Assembly: GCF_003334335.1 (NCBI RefSeq)
Contig: NZ_QOWQ01000001.1
DNA: 64,000 nt
Direction: 5' to 3' (one strand)
Source of the DNA: Escherichia coli
Lineage (GTDB): Bacteria; Pseudomonadota; Gammaproteobacteria; Enterobacterales; Enterobacteriaceae
The position numbers and the translations under genes were made by a program. Shown one piece after another: positions 11,259 to 26,080 of this stretch (the stretch's first letter is position 1; every line of letters begins with the position of its first letter). The notes under the pieces are model-generated. The model ran no database searches. It was not told the DNA's origin and saw only the letters and a list, made by a program, of their open reading frames with translations.

Positions 11259-14200
11259 ATGTTAAGGGTCTACCATTCCAATCGTCTGGACGTGCTGGAA
11301 GCGTTGATGGAGTTTATTGTCGAACGCGAACGGCTGGACGATCCTTTCGAACCAGAGATGATTCTGGTGCAAAGTACCGGTATGGCACAGTGGCTGCAAA
11401 TGACCCTGTCGCAAAAGTTTGGTATTGCGGCAAACATTGATTTTCCGCTGCCAGCGAGCTTTATCTGGGATATGTTCGTCCGGGTGTTACCGGAAATCCC
11501 CAAAGAGAGCGCCTTTAACAAACAGAGCATGAGCTGGAAACTGATGACTCTGCTGCCGCAATTGCTGGAGCGCGAAGACTTTACCCTGTTGCGGCATTAT
11601 CTGACTGACGATAGCGACAAGCGAAAACTGTTCCAGCTTTCCTCAAAAGCGGCGGACCTGTTTGACCAGTATCTGGTCTATCGTCCGGACTGGCTGGCAC
11701 AGTGGGAAACAGGACATTTGGTTGAAGGGCTGGGAGAAGCACAGGCCTGGCAAGCCCCGTTGTGGAAGGCGCTGGTGGAATATACCCATCAACTCGGGCA
11801 ACCGCGCTGGCACCGCGCCAATCTCTATCAGCGCTTTATCGAAACGCTGGAGTCCGCGACGACCTGCCCGCCGGGGTTACCTTCGCGCGTCTTTATATGC
11901 GGTATTTCCGCGTTACCGCCTGTTTATCTCCAGGCGCTACAGGCGCTGGGTAAACATATTGAAATCCATCTCCTGTTTACCAACCCCTGCCGTTATTACT
12001 GGGGCGATATTAAAGATCCTGCTTATCTGGCGAAACTGCTGACCCGTCAGCGTCGACACAGTTTTGAAGATCGCGAATTGCCGCTATTTCGTGATAGCGA
12101 AAATGCCGGGCAGCTCTTTAACAGCGATGGTGAACAGGATGTCGGCAACCCGCTACTGGCTTCATGGGGTAAGCTTGGGCGCGACTACATTTATCTCCTT
12201 TCTGACCTGGAGAGCAGCCAGGAGCTGGACGCCTTTGTCGATGTCACGCCAGATAACCTGCTGCATAACATTCAGTCTGACATTCTGGAACTGGAAAACC
12301 GCGCCGTTGCTGGTGTGAACATCGAAGAGTTTTCCCGTAGCGATAACAAACGCCCGCTTGATCCACTGGATAGCAGTATCACCTTCCACGTTTGCCATAG
12401 CCCGCAGCGTGAAGTTGAAGTTTTACACGATCGCCTGCTGGCGATGCTGGAGGAAGACCCGACACTTACTCCGCGCGACATCATCGTGATGGTGGCTGAT
12501 ATCGACAGCTACAGTCCGTTTATTCAGGCTGTGTTTGGTAGCGCACCTGCGGATCGTTACCTACCTTACGCCATTTCCGACCGTCGTGCGCGGCAGTCAC
12601 ATCCGGTACTGGAAGCGTTTATCAGCCTGTTATCACTGCCTGACAGTCGTTTTGTGTCAGAGGATGTGCTGGCGTTGCTGGATGTGCCGGTGCTGGCGGC
12701 GCGGTTTGACATCACCGAAGAAGGGCTGCGTTATTTACGCCAGTGGGTCAACGAATCCGGCATTCGTTGGGGCATAGATGACGACAACGTTCGCGAGCTG
12801 GAACTCCCCGCCACCGGACAACACACCTGGCGATTTGGCCTGACGCGTATGTTGTTGGGCTACGCGATGGAGAGCGCGCAGGGCGAGTGGCAATCGGTTC
12901 TACCTTATGATGAATCGAGCGGCTTAATTGCAGAACTGGTGGGGCATCTGGCTTCACTGCTAATGCAGCTAAACATCTGGCGTCGCGGGCTGGCACAGGA
13001 GCGTCCGCTGGAAGAGTGGTTGCCGGTTTGTCGCGATATGCTCAACGCCTTCTTCCTGCCGGATGCGGAAACCGAAGCGGCGATGACGCTGATCGAACAA
13101 CAATGGCAGGCGATTATCGCCGAAGGTTTAGGTGCGCAGTATGGCGACGCGGTGCCGCTGTCACTATTGCGTGATGAACTGGCACAGCGTCTGGATCAAG
13201 AACGTATCAGCCAGCGTTTTCTCGCCGGACCGGTTAACATTTGTACTCTGATGCCAATGCGTTCAATTCCGTTCAAAGTGGTTTGCCTGCTGGGAATGAA
13301 CGACGGCGTTTATCCACGTCAGCTTGCGCCATTGGGCTTTGACCTGATGAGCCAGAAACCGAAGCGTGGCGACCGTAGCCGTCGCGATGACGACCGCTAT
13401 CTGTTCCTGGAAGCGTTAATTTCCGCGCAGCAAAAACTCTATATCAGCTATATCGGTCGTTCCATTCAGGATAACAGTGAGCGTTTCCCGTCGGTACTGG
13501 TGCAGGAACTGATCGACTACATCGGGCAAAGTCATTATCTACCGGGCGATGAAGCGCTCAACTGTGATGAAAGCGAGGCAAGGGTAAAAGCGCATCTTAC
13601 TTGCCTCCATACCCGGATGCCGTTTGATCCACAAAACTACCAGCCAGGCGAACGACAAAGCTATGCTCGTGAATGGCTACCTGCGGCCAGCCAGGCTGGT
13701 AAAGCACATTCTGAATTTGTTCAGCCGCTGCCGTTTACCTTACCGGAAACCGTGCCGCTGGAAACGCTACAACGATTCTGGGCACATCCGGTGCGGGCAT
13801 TTTTCCAGATGCGTTTGCAGGTGAACTTCCGTACTGAAGACAGCGAAATCCCCGACACCGAGCCATTTATTCTGGAAGGACTTAGCCGTTATCAAATCAA
13901 TCAGCAGTTATTGAATGCACTGGTTGAGCAGGATGATGCCGAACGCTTGTTCCGCCGCTTCCGAGCGGCAGGGGATTTACCGTATGGCGCTTTTGGTGAA
14001 ATTTTCTGGGAAACACAGTGCCAGGAGATGCAGCAGCTTGCCGACAGAGTCATTGCCTGTCGCCAGCCGGGGCAGAGTATGGAAATTGATCTCGCCTGCA
14101 ACGGTGTGCAGATAACTGGCTGGTTGCCGCAGGTGCAGCCGGATGGCCTGTTGCGCTGGCGTCCCTCTTTATTAAGTGTGGCCCAGGGAATGCAACTTTG

Positions 14201-14627
14201 GCTGGAACACCTTGTCTACTGTGCCAGCGGTGGTAATGGTGAAAGTCGCCTTTTTCTACGCAAAGACGGCGAGTGGCGTTTTCCGCCGCTTGCAGCCGAA
14301 CAGGCTTTGCATTACCTCTCACAACTGATTGAGGGGTATCGTGAAGGAATGTCCGCGCCATTGCTGGTGTTACCTGAAAGTGGCGGCGCGTGGCTAAAAA
14401 CCTGTTATGACGCGCAAAACGATGCCATGCTGGATGACGATTCCACGTTGCAAAAAGCCCGTACGAAATTCCTTCAGGCTTACGAAGGCAACATGATGGT
14501 GCGTGGCGAAGGTGATGATATCTGGTATCAAAGGCTCTGGCGGCAATTAACACCAGAGACAATGGAGGCCATCGTTGAACAGTCGCAACGTTTCCTGTTA
14601 CCGCTGTTTCGCTTTAATCAGTCATGA
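11259..14627 (+). CDS. recC: Exodeoxyribonuclease V subunit RecC
   Basis: 1122-aa ORF recognised as RecC. Confidence 0.95.
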   Translation: MLRVYHSNRLDVLEALMEFIVERERLDDPFEPEMILVQSTGMAQWLQMTLSQKFGIAANIDFPLPASFIWDMFVRVLPEIPKESAFNKQSMSWKLMTLLPQLLEREDFTLLRHYLTDDSDKRKLFQLSSKAADLFDQYLVYRPDWLAQWETGHLVEGLGEAQAWQAPLWKALVEYTHQLGQPRWHRANLYQRFIETLESATTCPPGLPSRVFICGISALPPVYLQALQALGKHIEIHLLFTNPCRYYWGDIKDPAYLAKLLTRQRRHSFEDRELPLFRDSENAGQLFNSDGEQDVGNPLLASWGKLGRDYIYLLSDLESSQELDAFVDVTPDNLLHNIQSDILELENRAVAGVNIEEFSRSDNKRPLDPLDSSITFHVCHSPQREVEVLHDRLLAMLEEDPTLTPRDIIVMVADIDSYSPFIQAVFGSAPADRYLPYAISDRRARQSHPVLEAFISLLSLPDSRFVSEDVLALLDVPVLAARFDITEEGLRYLRQWVNESGIRWGIDDDNVRELELPATGQHTWRFGLTRMLLGYAMESAQGEWQSVLPYDESSGLIAELVGHLASLLMQLNIWRRGLAQERPLEEWLPVCRDMLNAFFLPDAETEAAMTLIEQQWQAIIAEGLGAQYGDAVPLSLLRDELAQRLDQERISQRFLAGPVNICTLMPMRSIPFKVVCLLGMNDGVYPRQLAPLGFDLMSQKPKRGDRSRRDDDRYLFLEALISAQQKLYISYIGRSIQDNSERFPSVLVQELIDYIGQSHYLPGDEALNCDESEARVKAHLTCLHTRMPFDPQNYQPGERQSYAREWLPAASQAGKAHSEFVQPLPFTLPETVPLETLQRFWAHPVRAFFQMRLQVNFRTEDSEIPDTEPFILEGLSRYQINQQLLNALVEQDDAERLFRRFRAAGDLPYGAFGEIFWETQCQEMQQLADRVIACRQPGQSMEIDLACNGVQITGWLPQVQPDGLLRWRPSLLSVAQGMQLWLEHLVYCASGGNGESRLFLRKDGEWRFPPLAAEQALHYLSQLIEGYREGMSAPLLVLPESGGAWLKTCYDAQNDAMLDDDSTLQKARTKFLQAYEGNMMVRGEGDDIWYQRLWRQLTPETMEAIVEQSQRFLLPLFRFNQS

Positions 14628-14802: not shown

Positions 14803-17691
14803 ATGCCCCACAGCACCTGGTTCAAAGCATTATTGTTGTTAGTTGCCCTTTGGGCACCCTTAAGTCAGGCAGAAACGGAATGGCAGCCGATTCAGGAAAC
14901 CATCCGTAAAAGTGATAAAGATAACCGCCAGTATCAGGCTATACGTCTGGATAACGGTATGGTGGTCTTGCTGGTTTCTGATCCGCAGGCAGTTAAATCG
15001 CTCTCGGCGCTGGTGGTGCCCGTTGGGTCGCTGGAAGATCCCGAGGCGTACCAGGGGCTGGCACATTACCTTGAACATATGAGTCTGATGGGGTCGAAAA
15101 AGTACCCGCAGGCTGACAGTCTGGCCGAATATCTCAAAATGCACGGCGGTAGTCACAATGCCAGCACTGCGCCGTATCGCACGGCTTTCTATCTGGAAGT
15201 TGAGAACGACGCCTTGCCTGGTGCGGTAGACCGCCTGGCCGATGCTATTGCTGAACCTTTGCTCGACAAGAAATATGCCGAACGTGAGCGTAATGCGGTG
15301 AACGCTGAATTAACCATGGCGCGTACGCGTGACGGGATGCGCATGGCACAGGTCAGCGCAGAAACCATTAACCCGGCACACCCCGGTTCAAAGTTTTCTG
15401 GTGGTAACCTCGAAACTTTAAGCGACAAACCTGGTAATCCGGTGCAGCAGGCGCTGAAAGATTTCCACGAGAAGTACTATTCCGCCAATTTGATGAAGGC
15501 GGTTATTTACAGTAATAAACCGCTGCCGGAGTTGGCAAAAATGGCGGCGGACACCTTTGGTCGCGTGCCGAACAAAGAGAGCAAAAAACCGGAAATCACC
15601 GTGCCGGTAGTCACCGACGCGCAAAAGGGCATTATCATTCATTACGTCCCTGCGCTGCCGCGTAAAGTGTTGCGCGTTGAGTTTCGCATCGATAACAACT
15701 CAGCGAAGTTCCGTAGTAAAACCGATGAATTGATTACCTATCTGATTGGCAATCGCAGCCCAGGTACACTTTCTGACTGGCTGCAAAAGCAGGGATTAGT
15801 TGAGGGCATTAGCGCCAACTCCGATCCTATCGTCAACGGCAACAGCGGCGTATTAGCGATCTCTGCGTCTTTAACCGATAAAGGCCTGGCTAATCGCGAT
15901 CAGGTTGTGGCGGCAATTTTTAGCTATCTCAATCTGTTACGTGAAAAAGGCATTGATAAACAATACTTCGATGAACTGGCGAATGTGCTGGATATCGACT
16001 TCCGTTATCCGTCGATCACCCGTGATATGGATTACGTCGAATGGCTGGCAGATACCATGATTCGCGTTCCTGTTGAGCATACGCTGGATGCAGTCAATAT
16101 TGCCGATCGGTACGATGCTAAAGCAGTAAAGGAACGTCTGGCGATGATGACGCCGCAGAATGCGCGTATCTGGTATATCAGCCCGAAAGAGCCGCACAAC
16201 AAAACGGCTTACTTTGTCGATGCGCCGTATCAGGTCGATAAAATCAGCGCACAAACTTTCGCCGACTGGCAGAAAAAAGCCGCCGACATTGCGCTCTCTT
16301 TGCCAGAGCTTAACCCTTATATTCCTGATGATTTCTCGCTGATTAAGTCAGAGAAGAAATACGACCATCCAGAGCTGATTGTTGATGAGTCGAATCTGCG
16401 CGTGGTGTATGCGCCAAGCCGTTATTTTGCCAGCGAGCCCAAAGCTGATGTCAGCCTGATTTTGCGTAATCCGAAAGCCATGGACAGCGCCCGCAATCAG
16501 GTGATGTTTGCGCTCAATGATTATCTCGCAGGGCTGGCGCTTGATCAGTTAAGCAACCAGGCGTCGGTTGGTGGCATAAGTTTTTCCACCAACGCTAACA
16601 ACGGCCTTATGGTTAATGCTAATGGTTACACCCAGCGTCTGCCGCAGCTGTTCCAGGCATTGCTCGAGGGGTACTTTAGCTATACCGCTACGGAAGATCA
16701 GCTTGAGCAGGCGAAGTCCTGGTATAACCAGATGATGGATTCCGCAGAAAAGGGTAAAGCGTTTGAGCAGGCGATTATGCCCGCGCAGATGCTCTCGCAA
16801 GTGCCGTACTTCTCGCGAGATGAACGGCGTAAAATTTTGCCCTCCATTACGTTGAAAGAGGTGCTGGCCTATCGCGACGCCTTAAAATCAGGGGCTCGAC
16901 CAGAGTTTATGGTTATCGGCAACATGACCGAGGCCCAGGCAACAACGCTGGCACGCGATGTGCAAAAACAGTTGGGCGCTGATGGTTCAGAGTGGTGTCG
17001 AAACAAAGATGTAGTGGTCGATAAAAAACAATCCGTCATCTTTGAAAAAGCCGGTAACAGCACCGACTCCGCACTGGCAGCGGTATTTGTACCGACTGGC
17101 TACGATGAATACACCAGCTCAGCCTATAGCTCTCTGTTGGGGCAGATCGTACAGCCGTGGTTCTACAATCAGTTGCGTACCGAAGAACAATTGGGCTATG
17201 CCGTGTTTGCGTTTCCAATGAGCGTGGGGCGTCAGTGGGGCATGGGCTTCCTTTTGCAAAGCAATGATAAACAGCCTTCATTCTTGTGGGAGCGTTACAA
17301 GGCGTTTTTCCCAACCGCAGAGGCAAAATTGCGAGCGATGAAGCCAGATGAGTTTGCGCAAATCCAGCAGGCGGTAATTACCCAGATGCTGCAGGCACCG
17401 CAAACGCTCGGCGAAGAAGCATCGAAGTTAAGTAAAGATTTCGATCGCGGCAATATGCGCTTCGATTCGCGTGATAAAATCGTGGCCCAGATAAAACTGC
17501 TGACGCCGCAAAAACTTGCTGATTTCTTCCATCAGGCGGTGGTCGAGCCGCAAGGCATGGCTATTCTGTCGCAGATTTCCGGCAGCCAGAACGGGAAAGC
17601 CGAATATGTACACCCTGAAGGCTGGAAAGTGTGGGAGAACGTCAGCGCGTTGCAGCAAACAATGCCCCTGATGAGTGAAAAGAATGAGTGA
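14803..17691 (+). CDS. ptrA: Periplasmic protease III (pitrilysin) PtrA
   Basis: 962-aa ORF with signal peptide and inverted zinc-binding motif HYLEH. Confidence 0.95.
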   Translation: MPHSTWFKALLLLVALWAPLSQAETEWQPIQETIRKSDKDNRQYQAIRLDNGMVVLLVSDPQAVKSLSALVVPVGSLEDPEAYQGLAHYLEHMSLMGSKKYPQADSLAEYLKMHGGSHNASTAPYRTAFYLEVENDALPGAVDRLADAIAEPLLDKKYAERERNAVNAELTMARTRDGMRMAQVSAETINPAHPGSKFSGGNLETLSDKPGNPVQQALKDFHEKYYSANLMKAVIYSNKPLPELAKMAADTFGRVPNKESKKPEITVPVVTDAQKGIIIHYVPALPRKVLRVEFRIDNNSAKFRSKTDELITYLIGNRSPGTLSDWLQKQGLVEGISANSDPIVNGNSGVLAISASLTDKGLANRDQVVAAIFSYLNLLREKGIDKQYFDELANVLDIDFRYPSITRDMDYVEWLADTMIRVPVEHTLDAVNIADRYDAKAVKERLAMMTPQNARIWYISPKEPHNKTAYFVDAPYQVDKISAQTFADWQKKAADIALSLPELNPYIPDDFSLIKSEKKYDHPELIVDESNLRVVYAPSRYFASEPKADVSLILRNPKAMDSARNQVMFALNDYLAGLALDQLSNQASVGGISFSTNANNGLMVNANGYTQRLPQLFQALLEGYFSYTATEDQLEQAKSWYNQMMDSAEKGKAFEQAIMPAQMLSQVPYFSRDERRKILPSITLKEVLAYRDALKSGARPEFMVIGNMTEAQATTLARDVQKQLGADGSEWCRNKDVVVDKKQSVIFEKAGNSTDSALAAVFVPTGYDEYTSSAYSSLLGQIVQPWFYNQLRTEEQLGYAVFAFPMSVGRQWGMGFLLQSNDKQPSFLWERYKAFFPTAEAKLRAMKPDEFAQIQQAVITQMLQAPQTLGEEASKLSKDFDRGNMRFDSRDKIVAQIKLLTPQKLADFFHQAVVEPQGMAILSQISGSQNGKAEYVHPEGWKVWENVSALQQTMPLMSEKNE

Positions 17692-20600
17692 TGTCGCCGA
17701 GACACTAGATCCTTTGCGCTTGCCCTTACAGGGTGAGCGCCTGATTGAAGCCTCTGCCGGCACAGGCAAAACCTTTACGATTGCGGCGCTCTATTTGCGC
17801 CTGTTACTTGGACTAGGCGGTTCCGCCGCCTTTCCCCGCCCGCTGACCGTTGAAGAACTGCTGGTGGTCACCTTTACCGAGGCTGCCACGGCAGAATTGC
17901 GCGGTCGTATCCGTAGCAATATCCACGAGTTGCGCATCGCCTGTCTGCGTGAAACCACCGACAATCCACTGTACGAACGCCTGCTGGAAGAGATCGACGA
18001 TAAAGCGCAAGCCGCGCAGTGGTTGTTGTTAGCCGAACGGCAGATGGATGAAGCGGCAGTCTTTACTATTCACGGCTTTTGCCAGCGCATGCTCAACCTG
18101 AATGCCTTTGAATCCGGCATGCTGTTTGAGCAGCAGCTGATTGAAGATGAGTCTCTGCTACGCTACCAGGCCTGCGCCGATTTCTGGCGTCGCCACTGCT
18201 ACCCGCTGCCGCGTGAAATAGCCCAGGTCGTCTTTGAAACCTGGAAAGGGCCGCAGGCGTTGCTGCGCGATATTAATCGTTATCTGCAAGGCGAAGCGCC
18301 GGTTATCAAAGCACCGCCGCCCGATGATGAAACGCTGGCTTCCCGTCACGCGCAAATTGTGGCGCGTATTGATACGGTAAAACAGCAGTGGCGCGACGCA
18401 GTGGGTGAACTGGATGCGCTGATCGAATCTTCTGGTATTGATCGACGCAAGTTTAACCGTAGCAATCAGGCTAAATGGATCGACAAGATCAGCGCCTGGG
18501 CAGAAGAAGAGACAAACAGTTATCAGTTGCCGGAGTCGCTGGAAAAATTCTCCCAGCGTTTCTTAGAAGATCGCACGAAGGCCGGGGGGGGAACCCCGCG
18601 ACATCCACTGTTTGAGGCGATCGATCAACTGCTTGCAGAACCATTGTCGATCCGCGATCTGGTGATCACCCGCGCATTGGCTGAGATCCGCGAAACAGTA
18701 GCGCGTGAAAAACGCCGCCGTGGCGAATTGGGTTTTGATGACATGTTAAGTCGGCTCGATTCCGCGCTGCGTAGCGAAAGCGGTGAGGTGTTGGCAGCGG
18801 CGATCCGTACGCGATTCCCGGTGGCAATGATCGATGAATTTCAGGATACCGACCCCCAGCAGTACCGAATTTTTCGCCGTATCTGGCACCATCAGCCGGA
18901 AACCGCATTGTTGCTAATTGGCGACCCGAAGCAGGCCATATATGCATTCCGGGGTGCGGATATCTTCACTTATATGAAGGCGCGTAGCGAAGTTCACGCC
19001 CACTACACTTTAGACACCAACTGGCGTTCCGCACCAGGAATGGTGAACAGCGTGAATAAGCTTTTCAGCCAGACTGATGACGCGTTCATGTTTCGCGAAA
19101 TACCGTTTATTCCAGTGAAATCAGCCGGGAAAAATCAGGCGTTACGTTTTGTATTTAAAGGTGAAACACAGCCTGCGATGAAAATGTGGCTGATGGAAGG
19201 CGAAAGCTGCGGCGTTGGCGATTATCAAAGTACCATGGCGCAGGTATGTGCTGCGCAAATCCGCGACTGGCTACAAGCCGGACAGCGGGGCGAAGCGTTG
19301 CTGATGAACGGCGACGACGCGCGTCCGGTGCGTGCTTCGGACATCAGTGTGCTGGTGCGCAGCCGCCAGGAGGCCGCCCAGGTGCGCGATGCCTTAACGT
19401 TGCTGGAAATCCCTTCCGTTTACCTTTCGAACCGCGACAGTGTTTTTGAAACTCTGGAAGCGCAGGAAATGCTTTGGTTGTTGCAGGCGGTGATGACGCC
19501 CGAACGTGAGAACACCCTGCGTAGTGCGCTGGCAACGTCAATGATGGGGCTGAACGCGCTGGATATCGAAACGCTGAACAATGACGAACATGCGTGGGAT
19601 GTGGTAGTCGAAGAGTTCGATGGTTATCGGCAAATCTGGCGCAAACGTGGCGTTATGCCGATGCTGCGGGCGCTGATGTCGGCGCGTAACATTGCTGAAA
19701 ACTTGCTGGCAACGGCAGGCGGTGAGCGGCGTCTTACCGATATCTTGCATATCAGCGAACTGCTACAAGAAGCCGGAACGCAGCTGGAAAGTGAACATGC
19801 GCTGGTACGCTGGTTATCGCAACATATCCTCGAGCCAGACAGTAATGCCTCCAGCCAACAAATGCGTCTCGAAAGTGATAAACATCTGGTGCAGATTGTC
19901 ACGATCCACAAATCGAAAGGGCTGGAATATCCATTGGTCTGGCTGCCGTTTATCACCAATTTCCGCGTCCAGGAGCAGGCGTTTTATCACGATCGCCACT
20001 CGTTTGAGGCAGTTCTGGATCTTAATGCTGCGCCAGAAAGCGTCGACCTCGCGGAGGCCGAACGTCTGGCGGAAGATCTGCGTTTGCTTTACGTGGCGCT
20101 GACACGTTCGGTTTGGCATTGCAGTCTCGGCGTTGCACCGCTGGTGCGCCGTCGTGGCGATAAAAAAGGTGACACCGACGTCCACCAAAGTGCGCTCGGG
20201 CGTTTGCTGCAAAAAGGGGAACCGCAAGATGCGGCAGGGCTTCGCACCTGTATTGAAGCGTTATGCGATGATGATATTGCCTGGCAAACGGCACAAACTG
20301 GTGATAACCAACCCTGGCAGGTTAATGATGTTTCTACAGCAGAGCTGAATGCGAAGACGTTACAACGATTGCCCGGCGATAACTGGCGCGTCACCAGCTA
20401 CTCTGGTTTGCAACAGCGTGGTCACGGTATCGCCCAGGATTTGATGCCTCGGCTGGATGTCGATGCTGCAGGCGTTGCCAGCGTCGTTGAAGAACCGACG
20501 TTAACACCACATCAGTTTCCGCGCGGTGCGTCACCGGGGACGTTCTTGCACAGTTTGTTTGAAGACCTGGATTTTACCCAGCCGGTTGACCCGAACTGGG

Positions 20601-21226
20601 TGCGGGAAAAACTGGAACTCGGCGGCTTTGAATCGCAGTGGGAACCGGTATTGACCGAGTGGATCACGGCTGTCCTCCAGGCACCTCTCAATGAAACCGG
20701 CGTAAGCCTGAGTCAACTTTCCGCCCGCAATAAACAGGTGGAGATGGAGTTTTATCTGCCGATTAGTGAACCGCTTATCGCCAGTCAGCTTGATACGTTA
20801 ATCCGCCAGTTTGACCCGCTATCCGCAGGCTGCCCGCCGCTGGAGTTCATGCAGGTACGTGGCATGTTAAAAGGCTTTATCGACCTGGTGTTCCGCCACG
20901 AAGGGCGTTATTACCTGCTCGACTATAAATCCAACTGGTTGGGTGAAGACAGTTCGGCTTACACCCAACAGGCTATGGCAGCGGCAATGCAGGCACACCG
21001 CTATGATCTGCAATATCAGCTTTATACCCTGGCGCTGCATCGTTATCTGCGCCATCGCATTGCTGATTACGACTATGAGCACCACTTTGGCGGCGTTATT
21101 TATCTGTTCCTGCGTGGCGTTGATAAAGAACATCCGCAACAGGGGATTTACACAACCCGACCCAACGCCGGGTTGATTGCCCTGATGGATGAGATGTTTG
21201 CCGGTATGACCCTGGAGGAGGCGTAA
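17684..21226 (+). CDS. recB: Exodeoxyribonuclease V subunit RecB (helicase-nuclease)
   Basis: Start placed at ATG 17684 (MSDVAETLD...), 8-bp overlap with ptrA stop; Walker A motif GTGKT. Confidence 0.95.
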
Positions 21227-23052
21227 TGAAATTGCAAAAGCAATTACTGGAAGCTGTGGAGCACAAACAGCTACGCCCGCTGGATGTGCAATTTGCCCTG
21301 ACCGTGGCGGGAGATGAACATCCTGCCGTCACCCTCGCGGCGGCACTGTTAAGTCATGATGCCGGAGAGGGACACGTTTGTTTGCCGCTTTCACGACTGG
21401 AAAATAACGAGGCGTCGCATCCGCTGTTGGCGACCTGTGTCAGTGAAATCGGTGAGCTACAAAATTGGGAAGAATGCTTGCTGGCTTCTCAAGCGGTCAG
21501 CAGGGGAGATGAACCCACGCCGATGATCCTCTGTGGCGATCGTCTTTATTTGAATCGCATGTGGTGTAACGAGCGCACAGTGGCACGCTTTTTCAACGAA
21601 GTGAATCATGCCATTGAGGTTGATGAAGCTCTACTGGCGCAAACCCTGGACAAACTTTTTCCAGTAAGCGATGAAATTAACTGGCAAAAAGTTGCGGCGG
21701 CAGTGGCGCTGACGCGGCGGATCTCGGTGATTTCCGGCGGCCCTGGCACCGGTAAAACGACCACCGTAGCGAAGTTGCTGGCAGCGTTAATTCAAATGGC
21801 CGACGGCGAACGCTGCCGTATCCGTCTGGCTGCACCAACGGGTAAAGCTGCCGCGCGCTTAACCGAATCTCTCGGCAAGGCTTTGCGACAGTTACCGCTG
21901 ACCGATGAACAAAAGAAACGCATTCCGGAAGATGCCAGCACTTTGCACCGATTGCTGGGCGCGCAGCCGGGTAGCCAGCGTTTACGTCATCATGCCGGTA
22001 ACCCGCTGCATCTTGATGTGCTGGTGGTAGATGAAGCGTCAATGATCGATCTGCCTATGATGTCGAGACTGATCGACGCCTTGCCCGATCATGCGCGAGT
22101 GATCTTTCTCGGCGATCGTGATCAACTGGCCTCGGTTGAGGCTGGGGCTGTGCTGGGCGATATCTGCGCTTATGCCAACGCGGGCTTTACCGCCGAGCGT
22201 GCCAGGCAGCTAAGCCGCCTGACGGGGACTCACGTTCCGGCAGGAACCGGCACAGAAGCGGCATCTTTGCGCGACAGTCTCTGCCTGCTGCAAAAAAGCT
22301 ATCGTTTCGGCAGCGATTCTGGCATTGGTCAGTTAGCTGCGGCGATCAACCGTGGTGATAAAACGGCAGTGAAAACCGTTTTTCAGCAGGATTTTACTGA
22401 TATCGAAAAACGGCTTTTACAGAGCGGCGAAGATTATATTGCGATGCTTGAGGAAGCTCTTGCGGGTTACGGACGTTATCTGGATCTGCTGCAAGCGCGT
22501 GCCGAGCCGGATTTAATCATTCAGGCGTTCAATGAGTACCAGCTTTTGTGCGCCCTGCGGGAAGGGCCGTTTGGCGTGGCTGGACTGAATGAGCGAATTG
22601 AGCAGTTTATGCAACAGAAGCGCAAAATTCATCGTCATCCGCACTCTCGTTGGTACGAAGGTCGACCGGTGATGATTGCCCGTAATGACAGCGCGCTTGG
22701 GTTGTTTAATGGCGATATCGGTATTGCGCTGGATCGCGGGCAGGGGACGCGCGTCTGGTTTGCGATGCCGGACGGCAATATTAAGTCTGTGCAACCGAGT
22801 CGCTTGCCAGAGCACGAAACTACGTGGGCGATGACGGTACATAAATCGCAGGGATCGGAGTTCGACCATGCGGCGTTGATTTTGCCGAGCCAACGCACGC
22901 CGGTAGTAACGCGAGAGCTGGTTTATACCGCGGTGACCCGCGCGCGTCGCCGTCTGTCGCTGTATGCCGATGAGCGCATATTAAGTGCGGCAATCGCCAC
23001 TCGTACTGAGCGGCGCAGTGGTCTGGCGGCGTTGTTTAGTTCACGGGAATAA
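21226..23052 (+). CDS. recD: Exodeoxyribonuclease V subunit RecD
   Basis: 608-aa ORF; ATG overlaps recB TAA (TAATG); Walker A motif GGPGTGKTT. Confidence 0.95.

Positions 23053-26003: not shown

Positions 26004-26080
<77 letters not shown>

Follow-up and report, generated by a model that had tools for sequence, protein, structure and literature searches.

The closest described counterpart of the gene considered here is recB of Escherichia coli MG1655 (b2820, NP_417297.1; the RecB of PDB entries 1W36, 5LD2 and 6SJB), which is the same gene, in the same operon context and of the same length. The arm domain of RecB has been reported as a shared binding site of DNA and of the phage anti-RecBCD proteins Gam and gp5.9, and in earlier RecBCD structures disordered loops lie on both sides of the arm residues 241-289 (PMC9836394). 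With respect to homopolymers, indels in E. coli become exponentially more frequent as a run lengthens; of the G:C runs followed in MMR-defective K-12, the four of 8 bp, located in tRNA-Leu genes, acquired 23-29 indels per gene, while tRNA-Ser genes with 7-bp G:C runs acquired 5 and 2 (PMC8510543). The former runs (leuP, leuQ, leuV and leuT) equal the recB tract described below in composition and length, but they reside in tRNA genes and were followed in MMR-defective mutation-accumulation lines, the rates in MMR-proficient cells being far lower. Another set of comparable loci is provided by the phase-variable genes of Neisseria, Haemophilus, Helicobacter and Campylobacter, which likewise carry a G run early in the coding sequence, where a one-base shift truncates the product; the recB tract differs from these in being short, in lying within a core DNA-repair gene and in having length variants that are explained by sequencing technology. 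The relevant technical error is also well described, as long-read consensus sequences show a known deletion bias in homopolymers (PMC12007338).

The locus lies in a window of 64,000 nt, i.e., the whole stretch of E. coli DNA that was analysed. On its plus strand, an intact recB coding sequence of 1180 codons occupies 17684-21226, with the ATG at 17684 and the stop ending at 21226; the start was taken from the annotated start in relatives, the mechanically called open reading frame (17675-21226) beginning 9 nt further upstream at a GTG (17675). The gene is embedded among recC (11259-14627, plus strand, ORF of 1122 aa, at the same place as the annotated recC of close relatives), ptrA (14803-17691, plus strand, 962 aa) and recD (21226-23052, plus strand, 608 aa), the latter two named from the annotation of relatives. 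The 3' end of ptrA overlaps the recB start by 8 nt and the start of recD overlaps the recB stop. The order recC-ptrA-recB-recD, with argA in the opposite orientation, agrees with the annotation of MG1655 and of four relatives. Furthermore, the full-length alignment of the window recB with that of MG1655 is identical at 3542 of 3543 nt, and a 100-aa fragment of the translated protein matches residues 251-350 of 1W36 chain B with one mismatch, at position 303. Given the K-12-like operon order, the near-complete match to MG1655 and the match to 1W36 chain B, the identity of the gene as E. coli recB (exodeoxyribonuclease V beta subunit) is secure.

Within this gene, positions 18584-18591 (plus strand; recB nt 901-908) consist of exactly eight G, as read directly from the local sequence aag gcc ggg ggg gga acc ccg. 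The run fills codons 301 (GGG) and 302 (GGG) and extends over the leading GG of codon 303 (GGA), within the peptide K299-A-G-G-G-T-P305, so that the Gly-Gly-Gly of KAGGGTP named in the original prediction is indeed Gly301-Gly302-Gly303. A pattern search on either strand of the 64-kb window returned no other G8 or C8; the tract is the longest G/C run in the window, the second longest being the G6 at 778, and runs of C all stay below 6 nt. Its presence is, nevertheless, no more than the chance expectation, dinucleotide-preserving shuffles containing a mean of 1.24 G8/C8 runs and at least one such run in 66 of 100 cases. A reading frame broken relative to homologues, the mark of a homopolymer artefact, is not seen here: all 1180 codons are uninterrupted, with one terminal stop.

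The sole nucleotide separating the window recB from that of MG1655 falls at the end of this tract. At recB nt 908 (window position 18591, plus strand) the window has G in place of the A of K-12, and codon 303 (18590-18592, plus strand) reads GGA for Gly instead of GAA for Glu, as placed by the codon list and by alignment to 1W36_B and other chains. The corresponding MG1655 sequence is ggccgggggggaaacccc, in which a G7 is followed by AAA and the peptide is KAGGETP; the comparison with the reference recB that was proposed earlier thus returns a shorter tract and Gly-Gly-Glu. Every distinct RecB sequence in the PDB (1W36, 5LD2, 6SJB, 8B1T and others) has Glu at 303. On this alignment, the eighth G changes the protein (Glu303Gly) and is thus a missense transition, as opposed to a synonymous choice of codon. 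The allele most likely arose in a K-12-like recB haplotype of phylogroup-A type, in which nt 908 changed from A to G and codon 303 accordingly from GAA to GGA; the same transition incidentally lengthened the species-wide G7 to a G8.

The distribution of the tract was assessed among 5426 complete E. coli genomes with queries of 67-69 nt having 30-nt flanks, exact matches being read from the band of at least 99% identity. The window 68-mer (AAG-GCC-G8-AA) is present exactly in 97 genomes (1.8%), the K-12 form AAG-GCC-G7-AAA in 1850 and the form AAA-GCC-G7-AAA, with a synonymous AAA Lys codon, in 3262; overall, at least 5112 genomes have G7 versus 97 with G8. The G8 genomes originate from humans, pigs, poultry, wild birds, water and food and from many countries, submitters and years; the variant is therefore not confined to one assembly or batch. 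The window recB is identical over all 3543 nt to recB of strains 300709 (NZ_CP025903.1) and ML35 (NZ_CP025747.1), where it is annotated as intact under RefSeq WP_001285995.1; the flanking 24 kb of these two strains differs from the window by 9 substitutions each, whereas recB differs by none. The best matches to window positions 1500-24500 (LR-64-2, FORC_081, BR1220, A14, FDAARGOS_1337 and others) all belong to the 97 G8 genomes. LR-64-2, the best complete-genome match over 23 kb, scores slightly under a perfect match, and in the 24-kb alignment five substitutions of the window (at about 1863, 3282, 12155, 14810 and 14879) have no counterpart in K-12, ETEC4073, NCTC9038, 300709 or ML35. By comparison with these sequences, the Gly303/G8 allele is already known, being the catalogued missense polymorphism WP_001285995.1. 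The earlier suggestion of "native codon choice" holds in its first half, the 68-mer occurring in 97 genomes and the whole gene in two strains without a difference, and fails in its second, the change being E303G.

A separate structural difference was observed downstream, at the metZWV locus between amiC and mltA, where only one initiator tRNA-Met gene is present in the window (26004-26080, minus strand). MG1655, ETEC4073, 300709, ML35 and the 'C600' record (see below) carry the gene in three tandem copies, repeated every 110 nt, at this locus, at which the window is 220 nt shorter; the single copy is due either to contraction of the array in the genome or to the assembly having collapsed the tandem repeat.

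In terms of protein function, residue 303 is located just C-terminal to the arm segment 241-289 of RecB, in a loop-like G-G-x-x-P context. Among the aligned protein-search matches to enterobacterial RecB fragments, five residues (E, V, I, A and G) occur at this position, next to a G302 that does not vary; this spectrum derives from a search with a 140-aa fragment, whose matches are short and often frameshifted fragments instead of a clean set of full-length orthologues. One such match, P0001, is a 201-aa RecB fragment with 99% identity to E. coli RecB that is labelled Streptomyces sp. DH17 and encoded on a 602-nt contig, most likely reflecting E. coli contamination of the Streptomyces assembly. 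Since the position is variable, its context is loop-like and the allele is spread over 97 otherwise normal genomes, E303G is most likely neutral or nearly so, and the recB of the window should encode a working RecB.

Changes in the length of the tract are a different matter, since a one-base loss ends RecB after 326 aa and a one-base gain after 310 aa, as compared to 1180 at full length; the original prediction was correct in expecting truncation from either shift. Among the 5426 complete genomes, one-base losses are represented by AAG-G7AA (5 genomes), AAA-G6AAA (47 genomes) and AAG-G6AAA (34 genomes). One-base gains are represented by a single genome, RM19259 (AAG-G8AAA), with no genome having G9AA and none having AAA-G8AAA. 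Thus, at least 87 of the 5426 genomes (1.6%) carry an indel call at the tract, with 86 losses versus 1 gain (binomial p ~1e-24), and in all seven indel-bearing records that were opened, recB is annotated as a "frameshifted" pseudogene. Fifteen of the losses belong to records named ETECxxxx and fall on three allele backgrounds (4 G7AA, at least 3 AAA-G6AAA and 8 AAG-G6AAA). ETECxxxx chromosomes of 4,785,434, 4,882,167 and 5,043,942 bp match the supplement of a study in which porcine ETEC were sequenced by nanopore only (R9.4.1) and processed with Trycycler and medaka, with no short reads (PMC10151945). Accession runs from the same projects also recur among the indel calls (the ETEC17xx/40xx, CDC 2013C-/2014C-, CP146xxx, CP183xxx and CP127xxx series). 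In ETEC4073 and NCTC9038, recB equals that of the window minus one G, with no other indel in about 38 kb; it is the sole pseudogene in 40 kb, and every locatable A/T run of 7-8 (9 of 10) is as long as its counterpart in the window. Because the calls run in the direction of deletion, cluster by project and, in these two strains, form the sole indel, at the longest G/C run, most of the losses appear to be technical in origin. The one-base loss shared by 86 public genomes at this exact tract, with its deletion bias and project clustering, matches the known mode of long-read under-calling (PMC12007338), as in the ETEC genomes (PMC10151945), whereas the window is in frame and has no such error. The earlier remark that such tracts are common sites of sequencing error thus holds for the public assemblies, though not for the window.

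The frequency of losses is 5 of 102 on G8 alleles versus 81 of 5193 on G7 alleles (odds ratio 3.3, Fisher p=0.024), with the genomes being non-independent by clonality and batch; the higher frequency on G8 fits a dependence on length, with a rate on this allele that may be about three times as high. In this comparison, the five G7AA genomes were counted under G8 on the basis of the higher indel and error propensity of a run of eight versus a run of three. In formal terms, G7AA is reached from G8AA when a G is lost and equally from G7AAA when an A is lost, the resulting sequence being identical. As for flanking SNPs, phylogroup-A-type genomes differ at no more than 10 sites of the 24-kb alignment, and the only site that separates K-12 is private to K-12. 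Since indel rates climb steeply with run length, the A>G change would be expected to render recB several-fold more prone to true frameshift in the G8 lineage, which would be of consequence mainly in mutator backgrounds.

One K-12 record stands apart from these calls. The 'C600' record NZ_CM181231.1 departs from MG1655 at only three places in 40 kb, all in recB (positions 20030, 20626 and 20642), viz. a one-base loss in the G7 tract and, about 600 nt downstream, two G>A changes 16 nt apart (Met>Ile and Glu>Lys). The clustering of transitions in a single gene suggests that recB of this record may be genuinely mutated rather than misread. Its siblings CM181225, CM181228 and CM181232 have G6 too. 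On account of the two extra G>A changes in recB, the record does not serve as a clean control for technical error.

Taken together, G8 is, with high confidence, a genuine inherited recB allele that encodes E303G, keeps the frame and is likely near-neutral. The alternative that the eighth G is a miscall of the A at the end of a G7, the true sequence being the G7AAA of K-12, draws on 18591 being the sole base that separates the two recB genes and on the occurrence of substitution errors beside homopolymers in long-read consensus (PMC12007338). It would, however, require the same error in 97 complete genomes, obtained independently by many laboratories and from many hosts, and in a catalogued RefSeq protein; moreover, the closest relatives of the window over 23 kb all have G8, and since their lineage predicts that form, a private miscall in the window is very unlikely. 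If the allele is genuine, the substitution could itself have been selected, the removal of a negative charge next to the RecB arm altering the binding of DNA ends or of Gam/gp5.9 and the longer homopolymer being incidental. The shared binding of DNA, Gam and gp5.9 at the arm domain (PMC9836394), the location of residue 303 directly after the arm segment 241-289 and the presence of the allele in 97 genomes from varied hosts would suit such a role. Nevertheless, position 303 varies freely among enterobacteria, and the reported contacts use Arg/Lys residues, not Glu303 (PMC9836394). In the sampled genomes, the allele is also restricted to a single recB haplotype that is otherwise identical to K-12, which fits hitch-hiking or drift within one lineage, and no recurrence on other backgrounds is seen; an adaptive origin of E303G is thus considered improbable.

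The tract might also be viewed as a contingency locus, at which slippage among G7, G8 and G9 toggles RecBCD, with effects, for example, on recombination, on how foreign DNA is tolerated or on how a phage infection ends. The G run does lie in the first third of the coding sequence, with a one-base shift truncating the protein at 310-326 aa, apparent length variants exist in 87 genomes, the 'C600' record may have a genuinely damaged recB, and, in E. coli defective in MMR, 8-bp G:C runs are genuine hotspots of indels (PMC8510543). Yet the variants are skewed 86:1 toward loss, on G7 as well as on G8, instead of running in both directions; they group by the project that sequenced them, one of these projects being nanopore-only and covering three allele backgrounds; and the sole indel of ETEC4073 and NCTC9038 is what an under-called longest G/C run would produce. 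A long tract is not maintained in the species, G8 being restricted to 1.8% of the 5426 genomes and G9 or longer to none. Phase-variable G/C tracts are typically of 9 or more, so that G7-G8 is short by comparison, and recB null mutants have poor viability. No evidence of biological phase variation at the recB tract was found, the length variants tracking sequencing technology, and a contingency function is regarded as extremely unlikely. There is likewise only a very slim chance that the A>G change, by raising frameshifts, yields RecBCD-null subpopulations as a weak accidental switch, or that Gly303 alters susceptibility to Gam/gp5.9. Two further candidates were set aside. Transcriptional or ribosomal slippage on the G8 was dropped, as there is no notable alternative-frame ORF and stops are met within 7-24 codons; to our knowledge, there is no precedent for efficient slippage on a G8 in E. 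coli. A G-quadruplex was dropped as well, the G run being single and isolated.

The inherited-allele reading leaves the eight-G call of the window in agreement with its relatives and, on that comparison, in need of no correction. Its biological weight is small, as it amounts to a catalogued missense polymorphism in an intact core repair gene. The wider relevance lies in the recB G7/G8 tract as a recurrent site at which 'complete' E. coli assemblies drop a G, affecting at least 86 of 5426 RefSeq genomes (~1.6%). Where a long-read E. coli assembly carries a "frameshifted recB" annotation at this tract, it is usually an artefact, and the sequencing technology needs to be checked before loss of RecBCD is inferred from it.
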